From: an uncultured Alphaproteobacteria bacterium
GTDB taxonomy: Bacteria > Pseudomonadota > Alphaproteobacteria > Rs-D84
DNA: 64,000 nt
Assembly (NCBI GenBank): GCA_951801825.1
Contig: CATOOF010000001.1
Coordinates: forward strand, 380,132 to 444,131
Reading direction: 5' to 3'
Shown here: positions 40,968 to 51,409 of the stretch, one piece after another
Numbering within the stretch: position 1 is the first letter of the stretch
How the letters are laid out: each line of letters opens with the position of its first letter
Program-made: the position numbers and the translations under genes
Notes under the pieces: model-generated
Told to the model about the DNA's origin: nothing
Seen by the model: only the letters and a program-made list of their open reading frames with translations
The model's database searches: none

Positions 40968-41057
40968 GGATGGTTGGCAGAGCGGTCGAATGCGGCGGTC
41001 TTGAAAACCGTTGAGGGTGCAAGCCCTCCGGGGGTTCGAATCCCTCACCATCCGCCA
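40968..41057 (+). tRNA. tRNA-Ser (anticodon TGA), long variable arm
   Basis: GGATGGTTGGCAGAGCGGTCGAATGC...CTTGAAAA...long extra arm...GGTTCGAATCCCTCACCATCCGCCA. Followed by a terminator hairpin at 41086-41115. Confidence 0.9.
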
Positions 41058-41184: not shown

Positions 41185-41470
41185 CTATACATTGGCCTTT
41201 TTCGCCCTGGCAGTAGGTTTCGGGATTATATTTGATGCTTTGGTGCAATGGCAAAGATTTTCACCACACTGCACGGCATCAAATAATTCCTGGGGTATGA
41301 TTGGGGCATGTTCGCCACGGGCGGTGGTGCCGGTAACCTTGCACTCAACATAACCCAGATATATCTTACTGCGTAGCATTCTGTGCAATGCCATTTTCTT
41401 GATTGGATTCCCGCCAATAACGCGACCGCCGTGCGTCGCCCATTTCTTGGCATAAATCCCGATGGTGGGC
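41185..41470 (-). pseudogene. Remnant of a large serine recombinase (recombinase domain only; no resolvase catalytic domain, frame disrupted)
   Basis: Translation ...KKMALHRMLRSKIYLGYVECKVTGTTARGEHAPIIPQELFDAVQ matches the Recombinase-domain block (NPxYxG ... HEPIIsxELFexVQ) of large serine recombinases. Sits immediately next to the tRNA-Ser 3' end. Confidence 0.5.
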
Positions 41471-41653: not shown

Positions 41654-42406
41654 TCAAATATAATGTATCGTGTATATAAGCTGTGTTGGCTGTTTGACGG
41701 ACAGTATTCCTGATAGGAGAGGTTGGCGTGAAACAGACTTCATAATATTTTTTAGTAATTCTTCTTTGCCAAAAAAATTTTTAAGGGGGAATATTTGCTC
41801 ATTATTTTTTATAGCTAAGATATCTAAGTGTATCTCTGTCTCATTATCATCGCATTTTTTTAAGGTCAGTATAGTTGCATTTGTATTCAGAGTTAGGTAA
41901 TAATCAGACTTTGTTCCTAAATCCTTATTGGCAGCACAGCTCATACATACTGCAAGTAAAGCAATGATAATATTTGAATTCAACTGCATTATATTATTAG
42001 AGTCTATGCTGATAATTTGTAATGACGGATCACTAGTGCCCCCTATAATGTTGAAATTGCTAGGAATTGATTTTCCATGATGGATGTGACATCGAAATAT
42101 ATGATACACAATTTCAGCCAAATCTGGCCCAAAGCATCCACCTACAACACGTCCTTTTTCATCCGTTATTTTTATACCTGGATAAAATTTCCAAGCCTCA
42201 CATTCTGGTAATCCCATAAAAGGTTCCATAATCCAGTAATAATTGCGTAGTAAATTTATATAGTCGTATCTTGAAATATAATCTTTGTTATACCAGTTTC
42301 TAGCAGTTCCTTCTATTGCCAATGTTGCAAAGTTAAATGCGGCTGTGAAATCTTGGGTGTTATAGGCATCAAGTGAGCGTTCTATGTTTCGAATTAATTC
42401 GGTCAT
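41654..42406 (-). CDS. Hypothetical protein (250 aa), AT-rich island cargo
   Basis: Clean ORF in a ~33% GC region. No recognisable motif. Confidence 0.45.
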   Translation of the reverse strand: MTELIRNIERSLDAYNTQDFTAAFNFATLAIEGTARNWYNKDYISRYDYINLLRNYYWIMEPFMGLPECEAWKFYPGIKITDEKGRVVGGCFGPDLAEIVYHIFRCHIHHGKSIPSNFNIIGGTSDPSLQIISIDSNNIMQLNSNIIIALLAVCMSCAANKDLGTKSDYYLTLNTNATILTLKKCDDNETEIHLDILAIKNNEQIFPLKNFFGKEELLKNIMKSVSRQPLLSGILSVKQPTQLIYTIHYI

Positions 42407-42529: not shown

Positions 42530-42955
42530 TTACAAATTTACAATCTCAATATCCGGGAACTGGGTGGCGATATATTCAGCGGCGAGTCTGCGGTGACATT
42601 GTAAAGCGCTCTTCTCGGTGCAGAGTAAGCATATTCGGTCAAGGTCGGGCGGGGCGAGCCCATCGGTCGGATGGCGTGTGGTCAGCAATTCATGGTACAT
42701 ACGCTCATAATCAGGCCAGGTAATGCGGCCGTCTTTGTAGCCGGCAAGGATTTCGGTGCTTGGGGCGAATTCTGTATGGTATTCATATCGGTCGCCCAGT
42801 GCGGCGGCCAAATTTGTGCCGCTATAAAACGGAACAAAACGACTGGTGCGCCACAGCCGAATATCCCAAACGCAACTTGCTTGGGTCGCGTTCAGGATAT
42901 CCATAAAATCGTCGGGCTTTTTGCCACTGAAGCCAATCGTAAAAATCTTTGCCAT
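42530..42955 (-). CDS. DUF488 (YeaO-like) family protein
   Basis: MAKIFTIGFSGKKPDDF...DIRLWRTSR N-terminal block typical of DUF488. Confidence 0.55.
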   Translation of the reverse strand: MAKIFTIGFSGKKPDDFMDILNATQASCVWDIRLWRTSRFVPFYSGTNLAAALGDRYEYHTEFAPSTEILAGYKDGRITWPDYERMYHELLTTRHPTDGLAPPDLDRICLLCTEKSALQCHRRLAAEYIATQFPDIEIVNL

Positions 42956-43418: not shown

Positions 43419-44408
43419 ATGCCAACAACTCGACATACTTTTGTTTGTCCAATATATAATATTGATGTAGATAATGATGTTTTGGGTGTTGATTATAATG
43501 GTTATATAATTATTTCTGCATCTGAATTTCACGAAAATTATGTGTCTCAATTATATTGTGATAATATGGGATTATTGGATGATATAAAATTACCGCAGCT
43601 TGGTTCAATAGTTGACCGGCCCACGGCTCGGTATATTATAATTTCTTATATAGATTTAGAAGATGGCTATAACCAAGATGTTATATCAGCTAATAACAAA
43701 AAGATAGATGAATTCTTTTGTGGCTTTTGCTTCGTAATAATGGCATTGAGATGGTTAGCCCCTGGAAATATACAGGTAAATAATGCTTATGTTTTATCAA
43801 GCAGAAGTGCAAGAAGAAGAGATTTTGGGATTTCTACACCATTGTATGGGCTAAGTAATATGTATACTGAAGGAACCACTCTTTTGTTCCTTAATAATTA
43901 TAGAATAACAGATGTTCTTTTAAATAGAGCGATTGAGCTCGGACAGAAAATAATAGATAATTATAGTGCCATCGAATATCCAGCGGTATATTTTAATCAG
44001 TATTACCAAACATATCATTTGCAAGATAAATTAATAAAGTTAATGACTTTGCTTGAAACTAGTTTAATGGGAGATAGTCCGATTGAAAAGCAATACGCAT
44101 TAATTTGTCGTGGATGTTATTTTTTGAATAAAAATATCGGGTTAACCTTAAAATGTGCATATTCAATCAGAAGTGAATATTTACATTCTGGTGATATTAA
44201 GCAGAAAACAGGTAAAAAAATTCAACAAATTGTGAATAAGCAAAATGAATGGGAAGCTTTATTTGTTTTTATAACGGAGTATCTCGAATTTATTTCTAGA
44301 GAAGTTTTAAATAAGTTATTTTTAGAAATTCTGGCTACAGGACATAAAATAGACCAAATAGATCGCGATTTAGATGAGCAAATTTATGCCAAATTAAGTA
44401 GCTCCTAG
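43419..44408 (+). CDS. Hypothetical protein with a possible HEPN-type Rx4H motif (Abi-like)
   Basis: C-terminal segment CAYSIRSEYLHSG fits the Rx4-6H HEPN signature. AT-rich. Assignment tentative. Confidence 0.35.
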   Translation: MPTTRHTFVCPIYNIDVDNDVLGVDYNGYIIISASEFHENYVSQLYCDNMGLLDDIKLPQLGSIVDRPTARYIIISYIDLEDGYNQDVISANNKKIDEFFCGFCFVIMALRWLAPGNIQVNNAYVLSSRSARRRDFGISTPLYGLSNMYTEGTTLLFLNNYRITDVLLNRAIELGQKIIDNYSAIEYPAVYFNQYYQTYHLQDKLIKLMTLLETSLMGDSPIEKQYALICRGCYFLNKNIGLTLKCAYSIRSEYLHSGDIKQKTGKKIQQIVNKQNEWEALFVFITEYLEFISREVLNKLFLEILATGHKIDQIDRDLDEQIYAKLSSS

Positions 44409-44582
44409 TTTTGGGTATTTAATCAGTTGATTTAAGTAATTCTTTATGCGAAACTGAAATTGAACTTATTGGGAATTGGGTTCGGGATTTGCCCAGAGAC
44501 GGCGGAACATTCGCTTGTTAACACCAACTCCCCGACCGCCATTATCCCATGGCGGTTAAATATTATCTATGGGAAGTAAATA

Positions 44583-45485
44583 ATGTCACATGAAATTCTG
44601 TTGAAAGATATTTTGGATGGGATAAAGGTAGATTCGTCTGCAAATCGTCGGCGCAAGCTGCGTTTCAATACTTCATGGATTGATCAGGATACAAAGATAT
44701 TCAGAGATTTCCGGTCAATGTATATGGATAATGACGAATGTTTTGTGCCATGGACTTTGTCTACTCGGTCGAATAAGCAAAAAAGACTTAGTGACATTGA
44801 CACGGTTTTTCAGTTTATTGAAATAGAACCGCATAAATGGTTGTTTGTAGGCGCATATGAAATAATTGACTTGAATTTGTCTGCGTTTGACAAAGTTATT
44901 GGTAAACCATTTGATTATGCAAATGCAAAAAGATTGGCCGAATTTGATAAGTTATCTGACAGATTAGTGGTGGAACACACTAATACACCAAAGAAATTTT
45001 TTTATACTGATCCTAATATAATTGACAATGTAAAGGTTTATACTATTTTGCCGCGACCGTATCGCGGTTCTGCAGAAGAGTTTCCAGGATATGAAAATGT
45101 ATGTAAAGATTATAAATCATTGTCGCATTGTATAAAAGACTCTGCGTGGCATGATGCCCTATGCAATGTATATGGTGTATATGTTTTGACTGATACAAAA
45201 ACTGGGAAATTATATATCGGGTCTGCAACGGGGGCGGATGGAATATATGGCCGGTGGCAAACTTATCTGAAAAGGGGATATGATGATTCTGATAAAGACT
45301 ATCCGAATAAAAAATTGAAAGAGTTGGTAAAAAAAGAAGGTATTAAATATATCCAGGATAATTTTCAATACAGCATATTAGAAATTTTCCCAAAGACAGA
45401 TATTGGATGCAATAAAGCGTTAGAACGCGAAAGTTATTGGAAAAATGTATTCAAAACGCGTATGTTTGGATATAATGATAACTAG
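44583..45485 (+). CDS. GIY-YIG nuclease domain protein with an uncharacterised ~190-aa N-terminal domain
   Basis: C-terminal GVYVLTDTKTGKLYIGSATGADGIYGRW...ALERESYW...FGYN reproduces the GIY, YIG, Arg, Glu and Asn positions. Confidence 0.65.
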   Translation: MSHEILLKDILDGIKVDSSANRRRKLRFNTSWIDQDTKIFRDFRSMYMDNDECFVPWTLSTRSNKQKRLSDIDTVFQFIEIEPHKWLFVGAYEIIDLNLSAFDKVIGKPFDYANAKRLAEFDKLSDRLVVEHTNTPKKFFYTDPNIIDNVKVYTILPRPYRGSAEEFPGYENVCKDYKSLSHCIKDSAWHDALCNVYGVYVLTDTKTGKLYIGSATGADGIYGRWQTYLKRGYDDSDKDYPNKKLKELVKKEGIKYIQDNFQYSILEIFPKTDIGCNKALERESYWKNVFKTRMFGYNDN

Positions 45486-45569
45486 GAATATCTAATGCTG
45501 TCAAAAGAGAAATGGGCTTTAGAATAGGCAGAATACAAAGACGTTAGTTGTAACTTTGGATATACCATA

Positions 45570-45956: not shown

Positions 45957-45979
45957 GATTGGTTGTGCCGGCCAAGCCG

Positions 45980-46471
45980 TCAGATGTCGCCCCGGTGGCA
46001 CTGCTGGTCTTCGTCAGTCAGCGCGGGAATGGCATCCGCTTTCGGATCACTTGCTCCATCACCGTCCAGAATTAGGTCAATCTCGGCGGTCTCAAAACCG
46101 GAGATTTCCAGATTGAAATCCAGGTCCAGGTTGCTCAATTCACTGAATTCCAGATTCAACAATTCGATACTCCATTTGCCGAGTTCCGTAAGTTTGTTGT
46201 CCGCGATGCGGTACGCGCGTTTTTGTGCATCCGTCAGATGCGACAGAATAATTGCCGGCACTTCGATCATGCCGGCATCCTTGGCCGCCGCCACGCGCCC
46301 ATGCCCGGTGATGATTTCCAGATTCTCGTCCAGCAAGACCGGATTGATAAACCCGAACTCGCGGATGGATTCGCGTATTTTTGCGACTTGGACTTTGGTA
46401 TGCAGCTTCGGGTTGTTTTTGTACGCCCGAATGTCAGTTATTTTTATGTTTTGGATTTGTAAGTTGGTCAT
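45980..46471 (-). CDS. ParB-like nuclease domain protein (ParB/Srx N-terminal domain only)
   Basis: IREFGFINPVLLDENLEIITGHGRVAAAKDAG contains the ParB GxxR box. ATG 46471 has a GGAG SD; ORF-track 46582 is an upstream extension. ~50% GC inside an AT-rich island. Confidence 0.6.
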   Translation of the reverse strand: MTNLQIQNIKITDIRAYKNNPKLHTKVQVAKIRESIREFGFINPVLLDENLEIITGHGRVAAAKDAGMIEVPAIILSHLTDAQKRAYRIADNKLTELGKWSIELLNLEFSELSNLDLDFNLEISGFETAEIDLILDGDGASDPKADAIPALTDEDQQCHRGDI

Positions 46472-46687
46472 TAGACACTCCGTATAAGTTTTGTTAATCA
46501 TCACTATAAATTTTTTATAGGGGGGTATATATATGGAAAAGTGAAAGTTTACTTGAGTGTTCGCGCCACGAAACCTATACACTTTCCCTCTTATAAGGCG
46601 ATCTGAAAGTTTATGTTTTGATATATGGCTAAAAATAATGTGTTATACTTGAAAAAATGGCTGGTGTGATATATATAGAAATATACT

Positions 46688-48265
46688 ATGAGAATTAATA
46701 AGTCGGCGGGTTTAAACGAGTCAGAGCATCGTCTTGTAAAACTAGGCGAGAAGGTTTTTATGGGATTATGGAGTTATCCTAATCCCAAAATAAAAACCTC
46801 ATCAGGAACCCCGGAATTATGTGATTTGTTAGTTGTTTGTGGTAATAATGTACTAGTTTTCTCAGATAAAGATATCAAATTCAATGAGGATAAAGACTTA
46901 TTAGTGGCTTGGCGCAGATGGGAGCGGAAAGCTATATTAAAATCGATAAATCAGTTAAGACATGCCGAAAATATTATAAAAGATCATCCAGAAAAAATAT
47001 TATTGAATGATACAGATCCTTTTCCTTTGTCATTTCCTGCAAAGAGGGATTTAAAAATACGTTTAATATGTGTGGCAAATGGGGTAGCGGAAGCGTGTAA
47101 AAGATATTTTGGTAAAGGCTGTACAGGAAGTTTAAAATTTTCTAACTTAAACGGTTATACTCAGGTGTCAGATAAGGACTTGTCTAAGTTACCTGTTAAG
47201 GAAAGAGAAGAGTATAAAGAGAGTACGATATTCACTATAGCTGATTATGATTCATTAAAAACCTTTGTACATGTTTTTGATGATTATTCTTTCCCGTTTG
47301 TTTTACAGGAATTAGATACATTGACGGATTTCGTTAAATATTTGGAAGAAAAGGAGCGTTTTATAAGATCTGGGGTTGCGGTATGTTATACTGGCGAAGA
47401 GGATTTATTATACAATTATTTAAAAGAGTTTGATGAAGAACGCAATTGTCATACATTTGTAAATCCAAAAGAAACTAATGCAAATGTATTTATGTTTATG
47501 GAAGAGGATTGGAATTCATTTAAACAGTCCCAACAATATATTGCTCGTATAAAAGCTAACCAAAAAAGCTATTTCTGGGATCAGCTTGTTCAACATAATG
47601 CCCAATGTACATTGGCCGGTATTACTAAAATTTTTGCTACTGCGTCAGCAGACTGTGATATTGCTTTTCGGTATATGGCGCTAGAGGATCGATTGTCGCG
47701 CAGAGCATTTTCCGATAGAATGATAGCTGCAATCAGCAATTTCCCCGATAATTATACGCCAGACAATCACTATATGAGTGCATTTTTCTCTTTTGTGAAT
47801 GATGGATTATTGTACATATTTTTACAAATTCCCAAGGAAAACAACAGTTCTCATGGTGATTACTTAAAAGCTAGACGTGATAAAATGCAAATTTACGCCA
47901 ACTGTGCCAAAGCTAGATGTGAAATAGAGGGTAAGTTTGTAGACAAGGTTATATGTATTGCAACTGAGCCGATGAGAATTGTGAAAAATGTTGATATAGA
48001 CATAATGCTAATGGATATTAAAGAATGGAATACAGAACTACAGAACCATTGGGAATCGGCACGTCGAAACTTAAACATATTTAGAAAATCATTTAAAGAT
48101 CTGCAGCATGCAAAAGAAAAAGAATGGCCTGAGTCTCCGATTTTTGTGCAAAAACGAACTAAAAAGATAGGTCAAAATGATAAATGTCCATGTGGTAGTG
48201 GATTAAAATACAAGAAGTGCTGCGGAAGTGTTTTGAAACCCAAAAAACAAATACCTTACATATAA
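46688..48265 (+). CDS. NERD-like nuclease-related domain protein with a C-terminal SEC-C metal-binding motif
   Basis: N-terminus GEKVFMGLWS...ELCDLLVVCGNNVLVFSDKDIKF matches the NERD pattern (E...ExDhvvv...vfvxExK). The terminal CPCGSGLKYKKCCG is a SEC-C motif. Confidence 0.5.
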   Translation: MRINKSAGLNESEHRLVKLGEKVFMGLWSYPNPKIKTSSGTPELCDLLVVCGNNVLVFSDKDIKFNEDKDLLVAWRRWERKAILKSINQLRHAENIIKDHPEKILLNDTDPFPLSFPAKRDLKIRLICVANGVAEACKRYFGKGCTGSLKFSNLNGYTQVSDKDLSKLPVKEREEYKESTIFTIADYDSLKTFVHVFDDYSFPFVLQELDTLTDFVKYLEEKERFIRSGVAVCYTGEEDLLYNYLKEFDEERNCHTFVNPKETNANVFMFMEEDWNSFKQSQQYIARIKANQKSYFWDQLVQHNAQCTLAGITKIFATASADCDIAFRYMALEDRLSRRAFSDRMIAAISNFPDNYTPDNHYMSAFFSFVNDGLLYIFLQIPKENNSSHGDYLKARRDKMQIYANCAKARCEIEGKFVDKVICIATEPMRIVKNVDIDIMLMDIKEWNTELQNHWESARRNLNIFRKSFKDLQHAKEKEWPESPIFVQKRTKKIGQNDKCPCGSGLKYKKCCGSVLKPKKQIPYI

Positions 48266-48487: not shown

Positions 48488-49873
48488 TTAATAAAATCCA
48501 AATTTTAATTTCCTATTCTCTATTTCTGATTGTAGCATATCAAAATTGAAATCAGAACGATTTATATTTTTATAAAATTTTAGTAAATGATAATGAAAAG
48601 AATTGTGAAATGTCTTTTTTATCATACTATCTAACAAAGTAATATAGTAATCTTCTCTGTTAAGCTCTTTCATTATTTTATATACATTAGATAGTCTAAA
48701 ATCCGGAGAATCTGCAAGAATAGTTTCATCTAGTATAGATGTAATAGTTGGTTCTAATAGTTCATTTTCAAGAAAGTTTATTCCTTTTTTCACTAATAGT
48801 GTAATTATTCGTTTTATCACTCTATCAGATCTAAATGCATATTTTTTCATTTTGTAGTCAAAGAACTCTCTAACAGCAGAATTAAAATTTTCTTTTGTGG
48901 TATCGTCGGATAAGCAACTAATAATATCAAAAGCTTGGTAAATTCTATATTCTGATGCTTTCATAATATGAACTTTACCAACATTTATATTAAGTCCAAT
49001 CTTATATAAAATTTTGGATGCTTCAAAGATATGTTTTTCTGCGGTATACTTATCGTTGCTAAATATTGCCATATCATCAGCAAAACGTATATAAGAAGAA
49101 CCGGAAGCTTGTGTTAAGTTAAATATGCGTTTGTCAAATTCTCTCAGATAAAAATTTGCAAGCTGTCTGGAACAATCGCCGACTTCGTCTTGCGGTATGC
49201 CGGTATGTCGACTAAAATATCCGTCAAAAGGTTTGTTCCAGTAATGTAAAAAGTACATTAGTAAATCAAGTTCATTGCTAAGAGTATTGGGTATTTTATG
49301 GCGCAGGCGTTTTTCTAATAAATCAACTTTTATATTGTCATAGAAGTTAGCTATATCAAATATTGCTACATAAAAATCCTCTCCGAATTTTGATTGATAA
49401 TCTAAAAATACGGAATATGCTTTTCTGGTATATTCATTCCATTCGTTCAACCATGCTCGAATATCTATTGCTGCAGCTGGAAAGTATTGGATTGTATCCA
49501 ACATAAGAAGGTCTTCAAAATTTTCTATTTCTTTAATTGGATTGCTAAATCTCCAGCCGCCAAATGTTCCTTGTGTCCTATCTTTTATGTCGCATATGTA
49601 ATCTTGGAGTTTGTTTAAACAGTAAAAATATGCACAATAGTCTGTAAATTCAAACGTTGGTACTATTCTGGCGACATTACCACCTTTGTTAAATATTATA
49701 TAGTCTCTTGGAATTGTCGGTTGATATGTATTGTTTGAGATGTCGTTATACAAATTAGATAAACCGGTTTGTATATCAATAAGAGGAAACTCTATTAGGG
49801 ATTGTTTTTTTACATGTTTTGCAAAAGGTAACATTGAAGCGATAAACTCAGACTTAGTTTCATGAATTTGCAT
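48488..49873 (-). CDS. Reverse transcriptase of the Abi/retron/DRT-like (non-intron, non-LTR) type, 461 aa
   Basis: RT motifs 1-2 (IFNKGGNVARIVP), A (VAIFDIANFYDNI), B' (GIPQDEVGDCSRQLANFYL), C (YIRFADDMAIFS), D (KIGLNINVGKVHI). ~140-aa alpha-helical C-terminal extension. No maturase or endonuclease domains. Confidence 0.75.
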   Translation of the reverse strand: MQIHETKSEFIASMLPFAKHVKKQSLIEFPLIDIQTGLSNLYNDISNNTYQPTIPRDYIIFNKGGNVARIVPTFEFTDYCAYFYCLNKLQDYICDIKDRTQGTFGGWRFSNPIKEIENFEDLLMLDTIQYFPAAAIDIRAWLNEWNEYTRKAYSVFLDYQSKFGEDFYVAIFDIANFYDNIKVDLLEKRLRHKIPNTLSNELDLLMYFLHYWNKPFDGYFSRHTGIPQDEVGDCSRQLANFYLREFDKRIFNLTQASGSSYIRFADDMAIFSNDKYTAEKHIFEASKILYKIGLNINVGKVHIMKASEYRIYQAFDIISCLSDDTTKENFNSAVREFFDYKMKKYAFRSDRVIKRIITLLVKKGINFLENELLEPTITSILDETILADSPDFRLSNVYKIMKELNREDYYITLLDSMIKKTFHNSFHYHLLKFYKNINRSDFNFDMLQSEIENRKLKFGFY

Positions 49874-50557: not shown

Positions 50558-51067
50558 GTGTTTACGCCCAACACCCCAGCTGAAAAAGCAACATTTGAAA
50601 AGCCGGTTAATACAATGCCTGGTTACTATGCGGTATTTGATGACAAGCAATTTACATTGTATGTGGATGATAAACCGGTAATATCATGGGATGCTGTATC
50701 TGGTCGTTCCGGTTACCAAAGCCCAGAATGTCAAGACCAAAAATCCACAGGGCCAATCCCAGAAGGGACGTATGTTGCAAGACAGGAAAAACTACAGTTT
50801 ATGTCTGCTACAGATTGGCTTATTGGCTGGACGACTAAAGTTACTGATAGGGGTGTTTGGCCCGGGTCTTCAATGTCTTGGGGAAGCTCGCGTGTCTGGT
50901 TAGAACCATCAAAAGAAACAAATACGTTTGGTCGAGGTGGTTTCAGTATTCATGGTGGCGAGGAGCCCGGTTCTGCTGGTTGCATTGATCTAACAAGTGA
51001 AATGCCAGGGTTTGCAGATTGGTTCAAAAAGAATGGAAAAGATTTAATTATTAAAGTAGAGTATTAA
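50558..51067 (+). CDS. DUF2778/Tlde1-like L,D-transpeptidase-fold protein (candidate peptidoglycan-targeting toxin)
   Basis: GRGGFSIHGGEEPGSAGCIDL has the His...Ser-x-Gly-Cys catalytic arrangement of YkuD/Tlde1 domains. Start uncertain (GTG 50558 or ATG 50615). Confidence 0.6.
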   Translation: MFTPNTPAEKATFEKPVNTMPGYYAVFDDKQFTLYVDDKPVISWDAVSGRSGYQSPECQDQKSTGPIPEGTYVARQEKLQFMSATDWLIGWTTKVTDRGVWPGSSMSWGSSRVWLEPSKETNTFGRGGFSIHGGEEPGSAGCIDLTSEMPGFADWFKKNGKDLIIKVEY

Positions 51068-51082
51068 AAACAAAGGCATAAA

Positions 51083-51409
51083 ATGAAAAAAATATTAAAC
51101 ATAACAAGTTATGTCGCGACAATATGTTTGTTTTGTGCCCTGTATATTTTTTTATTTGATTTGGTTTGTATCGGCAAAATTTCAAAATTTAATCATATTT
51201 GGGCAAATGCTTGTCAGTTTGATATTGAAGGCGCATATCTAACCTGTATGACAAATTATGATGTTTCGTGCATTGTGTTGTTGTTGCTCATATTATCTTT
51301 TATGTTATTGCGGCTAATAAGAGTATATAACAAACGTGTCCTGCTCGTTCCGATTTGTGGTTTTTTATTGTTTGTGTTGTCTGTTATAACATGTTGGGGG
51401 CTTGTCTAA
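51083..51409 (+). CDS. Small multi-TM membrane protein, candidate cognate immunity protein
   Basis: Three hydrophobic helices, 15 nt downstream of the Tlde1-like gene. Confidence 0.45.
   Translation: MKKILNITSYVATICLFCALYIFLFDLVCIGKISKFNHIWANACQFDIEGAYLTCMTNYDVSCIVLLLLILSFMLLRLIRVYNKRVLLVPICGFLLFVLSVITCWGLV

Follow-up and report, generated by a model that had tools for sequence, protein, structure and literature searches.

The window analysed here is a stretch of 64,000 nucleotides (nt) from an uncultured alphaproteobacterium (GenBank assembly GCA_951801825.1, contig CATOOF010000001.1, positions 380,132 to 444,131), and its gene at 44583-45485, judged by sequence, very probably encodes a member of the UzuA family, i.e. 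the single protein of the one-gene anti-phage system Uzume. We consider it probable that the gene functions in defence. Uzume was named in Millman et al. 2022 (Cell Host Microbe), where the supplement labels UzuA as 'GIY-YIG nuclease' and marks the system of Bacillus sp. FJAT-27231 as verified. The family itself is already known and named, and what we describe is a new, divergent UzuA from an uncultured gut alphaproteobacterium. The PADLOC UzuA model PDLC03973 matches the window protein with E=1.5e-48 and aligns residues 6-300 with model positions 4-278 of 278; the same model spans the proteins of FJAT-27231 and of B. cereus B4080 end to end (1e-76 and 2e-73, respectively). The open reading frame (ORF) is real, and the first-pass annotation of this DNA, which was made from the sequence letters and had seen here a GIY-YIG nuclease fused to an N-terminal domain of 190 residues, is confirmed in this observation. 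Its suggestion that one gene encodes a defence effector together with a sensing or targeting module of its own agrees with the membership of the one-gene Uzume system. The parts of the gene and of the DNA that moves with it are the following.

44583..45485, + strand: UzuA-family gene, the entire one-gene system (ORF of 300 amino acids (aa) plus stop)
44583..45062, + strand: N-terminal beta-rich domain, aa 1-160, a putative sensing/targeting module
45063..45170, + strand: conserved linker plus helical segment, aa 161-196, carrying the motif FPGYENV...L180...W189...L193
45171..45482, + strand: GIY-YIG nuclease domain, aa 197-300, with catalytic Y200, Y211, R224, (Y228), E283 and N298
44413..44582, + strand: 5' leader moving with the gene, conserved in two homologue loci (L001 and L002) whose neighbouring genes differ
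44418..45542, + strand: mobile cassette common to the window and L001 (blastn of L001 against the window, 75-84% DNA identity)

The C-terminal 104 residues make up an intact GIY-YIG domain in which the catalytic Asn lies two residues from the end of the protein. A Pfam scan gives a match to PF01541 above the gathering threshold, and in the alignment with I-TevI the residues Y200, Y211, R224, E283 and N298 correspond to Y6, Y17, R27, E75 and N90, respectively; all five are invariant across 41 homologues. The GIY-YIG hallmarks that had been noted in the C-terminal part are in this way borne out as those of an intact nuclease within a two-domain protein. The AlphaFold2 model of the whole protein, calculated with the 41-sequence alignment, has a pLDDT of 90.5. 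The segment preceding the nuclease is likewise conserved, as F167, G169, L180 and L193 of its motif are invariant among the aligned homologues, and the FPGYENV motif is common to the window protein and the verified UzuA.

The N-terminal domain is predicted to contain strands at residues 23-29, 73-82, 85-103, 108-117, 128-131 and 151-155, after which comes the helical FPGYENV linker. AlphaFold2 modelling of residues 1-192 alone gives a pLDDT of 88.2 and a pTM of 0.81, and K25, R27, F28, N29, R68, F76, F78, I79, W86, L87 and A113 are conserved. Searches of Pfam, NCBIfam and the PDB (phmmer/hmmsearch) with this domain were all empty, and its only match in PHROGs is phrog_26160, an unannotated family. 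The domain had been described as uncharacterised, which holds in as much as it has no Pfam model, no solved structure and no assigned function, and does not hold in so far as the domain belongs to the named UzuA family. The best matches of the fold search were PUA-like readers, nearly all of the best ones being readers of nucleic-acid bases, and EVE (PH1033, THYN1), YTH, ASCH, VcaM4I, McrB-N and SRA appeared in the second tier. Foldseek against the PDB gave nothing significant (best E=0.12), with YTH, THYN1, Atu2648 and ASCH at the top of the list. In terms of the predicted structure, PUA-like modified-base readers are the nearest fold neighbours of the domain, which resembles them weakly and not closely enough to be counted as one of them.

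The distribution of the domain was followed with an exhaustive hidden Markov model (HMM) search of 1.84 billion representative sequences at E<=1e-3. The profile matches 418 proteins, nearly all of which have the UzuA architecture; the non-standard ones are a few proteins with N-terminal extensions (one of them DUF6508) and a single SIR2 fusion, and all the others carry GIY-YIG. The fusion (P0126, L081 1290-3149) is a protein of 619 aa in which the UzuA N-terminal domain, 38% identical to window residues 20-151, is followed by a low-complexity middle of ~270 aa and by SIR2_2 in the place of GIY-YIG. Its gene is complete, lies on a 44-kb contig and is found near genes for a helix-turn-helix (HTH) protein (HTH_3), a resolvase, Abi_2 and a helicase of >2300 aa. 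P0126 provides thin evidence that the N-terminal domain can serve a second defence effector. The idea that the domain is a widespread, shuffled sensor was considered and rejected, as 0 of 108 SIR2_2 relatives of P0126 carry it.

The verified UzuA of Bacillus sp. FJAT-27231 (280 aa) has the same layout as the window protein, i.e. an N-terminal domain of ~150-190 aa, the FPGYENV linker and, at the C-terminus, a GIY-YIG domain, and in both proteins the nuclease domain closes with GYN-x-N. BLASTP aligns the two proteins from F167 on only (aa 167-300, 36% identity, E=3e-25). When the profile of 242 N-terminal domains was compared by hhalign with aa 1-150 of the verified clade (54 sequences), the match was collinear over 129 columns with a probability of 90.4% and E=1.4e-6. 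Our reading of these alignments is that the two N-terminal parts probably represent one domain that has strongly diverged, and strong divergence is what is expected of a specificity module. The two proteins differ in their hosts, as FJAT-27231 is a Firmicute and the window host is a gut alphaproteobacterium, and also in their position within the family. The window protein groups in one subclade with UzuA of B. cereus B4080, whose N-terminal domain the HMMs do detect (33 bits, E=6e-12), apart from the verified FJAT-27231 clade.

UzuA is a stand-alone, self-contained mobile cassette with its own leader. This conclusion rests on the lack of accompanying neighbours, on the differing contexts of close copies and on the DNA shared with L001, leader included. 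The shared DNA of ~1.1 kb extends from 10 nt past the stop codon of the upstream gene orf329 to 57 nt past the uzuA stop codon. Copies with 84% and 71% identity are surrounded by wholly different genes, and in the locus L004 a UzuA homologue is found ~240 nt past the same tRNA-Ser that precedes the window island, without orf329 or the other intervening window genes. A tblastn search with the island neighbours found orf329, the SEC-C protein and the reverse transcriptase of the window (all listed below) in 0 of 80 UzuA homologue loci, and each Pfam family is seen four times at most among the 148 ORFs flanking 41 homologues (Pfam and PADLOC scans); nor is there a conserved methyltransferase among them.

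The ~170-nt leader occupies 44413-44582 in the window, 5678-5930 in L001 and 5684-5950 in L002. It contains a palindrome of 7-9 bp, CCGCCAT-N6-ATGGCGG, at 44536-44555, ~15 nt ahead of the ribosome-binding site GGGAAG (44571-44576), and a promoter-like TTAACA-16-CATTAT at 44518-44545. A promoter scan of the leader was not above shuffled controls, and the RNA fold of the leader is no more stable than that of shuffled sequences (z=-0.86). We speculate that the palindrome may be an operator or a regulatory hairpin. The leaders of L001 and L002 have an extra insert of ~100 nt with a second inverted repeat. In another locus, next to the 84%-identical copy, a gene for a 94-aa HTH_3 (Cro/C1-type) protein ends 50 nt upstream of uzuA (L088 5666-5950); the protein is perhaps a transcriptional regulator that is present on occasion, without family-wide conservation.

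The mechanism that we propose takes as its basis the family membership, the intact active site, the N-terminal domain with its predicted fold and its conservation, the autonomy of the gene and its place in a defence island, all of which are established. The window protein may well be a sensor-directed nuclease that acts on invading DNA. The N-terminal beta-rich domain would bind some feature of the invading nucleic acid; a base that is modified, or foreign to the host in some other way, is the most plausible candidate and would be recognised in the manner of PUA-like readers and of the sensor domain of CMoRE (described below). The binding would direct or license the GIY-YIG domain of the I-TevI type at the C-terminus to cleave the DNA by a one-metal mechanism via Y200, Y211, R224, E283 and N298. 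Host DNA would lack the recognised feature and be spared, so that neither a methyltransferase nor an antitoxin partner would be necessary. That the window copy defends its host, what the N-terminal domain binds and that phage DNA alone is cleaved are points that we infer, and that the protein is specifically modification-dependent we put forward as a tentative idea.

The logic would be that of a type IV-like restriction enzyme, and it can be compared with CMoRE, a type IV restriction enzyme with a GIY-YIG domain that is encoded by one gene and whose C-terminal domain binds 5-hydroxymethylcytosine (5hmC) (PDB 9u75; PMC12923530). The order of the domains is reversed between the two, since in CMoRE/PD-T4-3 the GIY-YIG domain is N-terminal and the sensor C-terminal. 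There is no sequence similarity between CMoRE/PD-T4-3 and the window protein, the structural similarity is marginal, and the PADLOC model of PD-T4-3 has no match in the window protein at E<=1. In the active site, CMoRE has the motif GIYxY-YIG, whereas the window protein has YGVYVL without a Tyr two residues past Y200, and nothing that corresponds to CMoRE's acidic auto-inhibitory loop is seen in it. The authors of CMoRE found no homologues of its sensor domain (PMC12923530). A further precedent is provided by fusions of EVE and GIY-YIG, for which a role as type IV restriction enzymes has been predicted (PMC7641849). The predicted type IV enzymes, in which EVE is joined to GIY-YIG, or EVE, SRA or YTH to HNH or PD-(D/E)XK (PMC7641849, PMC6765204), share with the window protein the proposed logic of a reader joined to a nuclease, and those with PUA-like readers are, like the window gene, located in defence islands without a cognate methyltransferase.

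Several points weigh against the reading of the window protein as a defence nuclease directed by a base reader. The HMMs of the N-terminal domain miss the first ~115 residues of the verified UzuA, where BLAST finds no similarity either, and hhalign to aa 1-115 of the verified clade alone gives a probability of 17%. Because the N-terminal domain of the verified UzuA is so strongly diverged, the evidence for defence carries over to the window subclade indirectly, and the one tested member of this subclade is negative: B. cereus B4080 UzuA is marked 'x' in the table of Millman et al. 2022, which we read as no defence observed. No mechanistic study of Uzume was found in the literature consulted, in which the mechanism is given as unknown or poorly understood. 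The SIR2 fusion, for its part, is a singleton known from one sequence on one contig, because none of the 108 SIR2_2 relatives carries the N-terminal domain, and a SIR2 effector would be no less at home in abortive infection than in restriction.

In the abortive-infection model, which is the main rival, the N-terminal domain would sense a phage protein or another cue specific to infection instead of a DNA base, and the GIY-YIG domain would then be released to degrade both host and phage DNA without discrimination, so that the cell would die before phages are released. Little sequence specificity is intrinsic to the GIY-YIG domain of the I-TevI class, and this property is in line with the model. 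The fusion of the N-terminal domain, on one occasion, to SIR2, which is typically a suicidal NADase effector, and the lack of a conserved immunity gene fit abortive infection equally well; the lack of an antitoxin or methyltransferase partner points the same way, and genes of the Abi type (AbiJ, Abi_2) often adjoin UzuA homologues. Other observations speak for a direct action on DNA, even though they are not decisive. The best fold matches of the N-terminal domain are nearly all base readers and not protein sensors, K25, R27 and R68, which are basic and conserved, suit the binding of nucleic acid, and CMoRE, the nearest one-gene GIY-YIG system with a solved mechanism, is a direct restriction enzyme. 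On balance we regard abortive infection as a possible but rather doubtful explanation of the window gene.

A selfish, free-standing homing endonuclease would spread by cutting sites that lack the cassette, its N-terminal domain would recognise the site, and defence would be incidental. We consider this quite improbable because of the reversed order of the domains, the lack of DNA-binding modules, the near-absence of the family from phages and the lack of an intron. Homing endonucleases of the I-TevI type have the GIY-YIG domain at their N-terminal end, with the DNA-binding modules at the C-terminus, in contrast to the window protein, which ends two residues past its catalytic Asn and lacks the linker of those enzymes as well as any zinc finger, NUMOD or HTH region for DNA binding. 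Pfam and fold searches detected no NUMOD, zinc-finger or HTH module in it; the best folds are PUA-like, and the N-terminal domain, contrary to the outcome that would have turned the gene into a selfish element in the first-pass annotation, is not a homing-endonuclease DNA-binding domain. Apart from the tRNA-Ser, neither a group I intron nor any other Rfam family was found in 40.9-53.8 kb of the window. Homing endonucleases reside in introns or between conserved phage or organelle genes, whereas plasmids and the defence islands of bacteria are where UzuA homologues occur; the flanks of the cassette are defence genes, no conserved target gene is interrupted by it or abuts it, and one member of the family has been experimentally verified as anti-phage. 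The third explanation, also raised earlier, would make the gene the effector arm of a multi-gene system together with the upstream orf329 or with the downstream SEC-C protein and UG13b reverse transcriptase. The gene does lie on the same strand as orf329 and 174 nt downstream of it, and the SEC-C/reverse transcriptase pair is within 1.2-3 kb in the same low-GC (guanine plus cytosine) island. As UzuA is self-contained, the explanation is left unsupported: the candidate partners are absent from the homologue loci, no family of flanking genes is shared, close copies have other neighbours, the homologue in L004 follows the tRNA directly, and the cassette shared with L001 begins past the stop codon of orf329. 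The comparative data effectively refute such an arrangement, which we hold to be extremely unlikely.

As far as annotation is concerned the result is an ordinary one, as the gene can be named UzuA/Uzume and the unexplained N-terminal domain is the family's own. What is added is a structural lead for this domain, the parallel to CMoRE in permuted order and the demonstration of a stand-alone mobile cassette. The lead, which can be tested, consists of the confidently modelled domain, with modified-base readers and the CMoRE sensor as its nearest neighbours in structure, and of the one SIR2 fusion. Going one step further, we speculate that Uzume might be a type IV-like family with a cryptic, highly diverged base reader of the PUA-like/CMoRE-like kind, even if we think this rather unlikely. 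If it were true, the 'orphan' 5hmC-sensing domain of CMoRE would be distantly related in fold to the Uzume N-terminal domain, which would link two permuted one-gene GIY-YIG systems, and the same reader could also be attached to a SIR2 NADase. Subclades with different N-terminal domains would recognise different hypermodifications of phage DNA, which could account for some homologues that showed no defence when tested with a restricted set of phages. In that case the family would count among the type IV-like defences aimed at phages with hypermodified DNA, and the variety of its N-terminal domains might yield new modification-specific nucleases for use in epigenetic mapping.

The UzuA family is widely distributed. 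There are 977 relatives at E<=1e-3, mainly full length and ~300 aa long, and they occur in Alphaproteobacteria, Lactococcus, Streptococcus, Acholeplasma, Bacteroidales, Saccharibacteria, Actinobacteria and others. Homologues are present in 419 plasmid records, Klebsiella (205) and Enterobacter (69) among them. Only 3 of 50,697 phage records match UzuA, all of them partially, and the matching phage records include two from Klebsiella, sized 84 and 120 kb. The Klebsiella and Enterobacter replicons that bear UzuA look like phage-plasmids, and Uzume may be a standard cargo of phage-plasmid-like elements. The UzuA plasmids inspected or listed are ~106-112 kb in size, IncFIB and non-mobilizable, and one of them (L083, NZ_CP118569.1) has a Rha-family regulator nearby. 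The genes that recur around UzuA homologues are defence genes, namely AbiJ, SoFic, type I, IIG and IV restriction enzymes, PbeA and IetA.

The window itself is bacterial chromosome, with genes of rpoB/rpoC size, lgt and a gene for a class II (HisRS-like) aminoacyl-tRNA synthetase, and its nearest relatives are metagenome-assembled genomes of uncultured gut Alphaproteobacteria or Rickettsiales-like bacteria. An origin from E. coli was rejected, as megablast with 43-47 kb of the window had no match in any complete E. coli genome. The GC content falls from ~0.48 to 0.28-0.41 over 43-50 kb. The location in a defence island, as assumed by the first-pass annotation, is upheld by this low-GC stretch after a tRNA-Ser gene, which contains a UG13b reverse transcriptase and a DUF488 protein matching PDC-M45C. 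The features of the island and its borders are listed here.

40968..41057, + strand: tRNA-Ser(UGA), the hotspot where the low-GC island starts (ARAGORN, Rfam)
41188-41394, - strand: serine-recombinase remnant of 69 aa just past the tRNA-Ser (PF07508, E=1.2e-5)
41654-42406, - strand: ORF of 250 aa (PF27329 (Rv1289) in a metagenome annotation, not reproduced by the Pfam scan)
42530-42955, - strand: DUF488 protein, component PDC-M45C of a PADLOC candidate system (E=7e-30), beside the 250-aa ORF
43419-44408, + strand: orf329, 329 aa, with no Pfam, NCBIfam, PHROGs or PADLOC match
45965-46582, - strand: truncated ParB_N-DNA methyltransferase, with residues 2-171 of a 421-aa homologue left and the catalytic DPPY part deleted
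46688-48265, + strand: protein of 525 aa, with a C-terminal SEC-C motif as the sole recognised feature
48488-49873, - strand: reverse transcriptase of 461 aa (PADLOC DRT class model RT_UG13b, E=6e-112)
50558-51067, + strand: protein with a Tlde1/YkuD-like L,D-transpeptidase domain (a toxin family resembling type VI secretion system effectors), at the far edge of the island
51083-51409, + strand: ORF of 108 aa directly after the Tlde1/YkuD-like gene

The recombinase remnant is a sign of an integrative element, old and decayed, at the tRNA-Ser hotspot; the tRNA 3' end has no att-like direct repeat in 40.9-53.8 kb, nor was any other meaningful repeat found there. An intact homologue of the ParB_N-methyltransferase is present in L002 (10718-11983), and it is suggestive that the decayed copy of the window lies beside a possibly modification-dependent nuclease. 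The remaining genes of the island may belong to other defence functions. We speculate that orf329 may be a further defence gene of the island, that the SEC-C protein and the UG13b reverse transcriptase may form a two-gene defence system of the DRT type, and that the Tlde1/YkuD-like gene and the 108-aa ORF that follows it may be a toxin-immunity pair.
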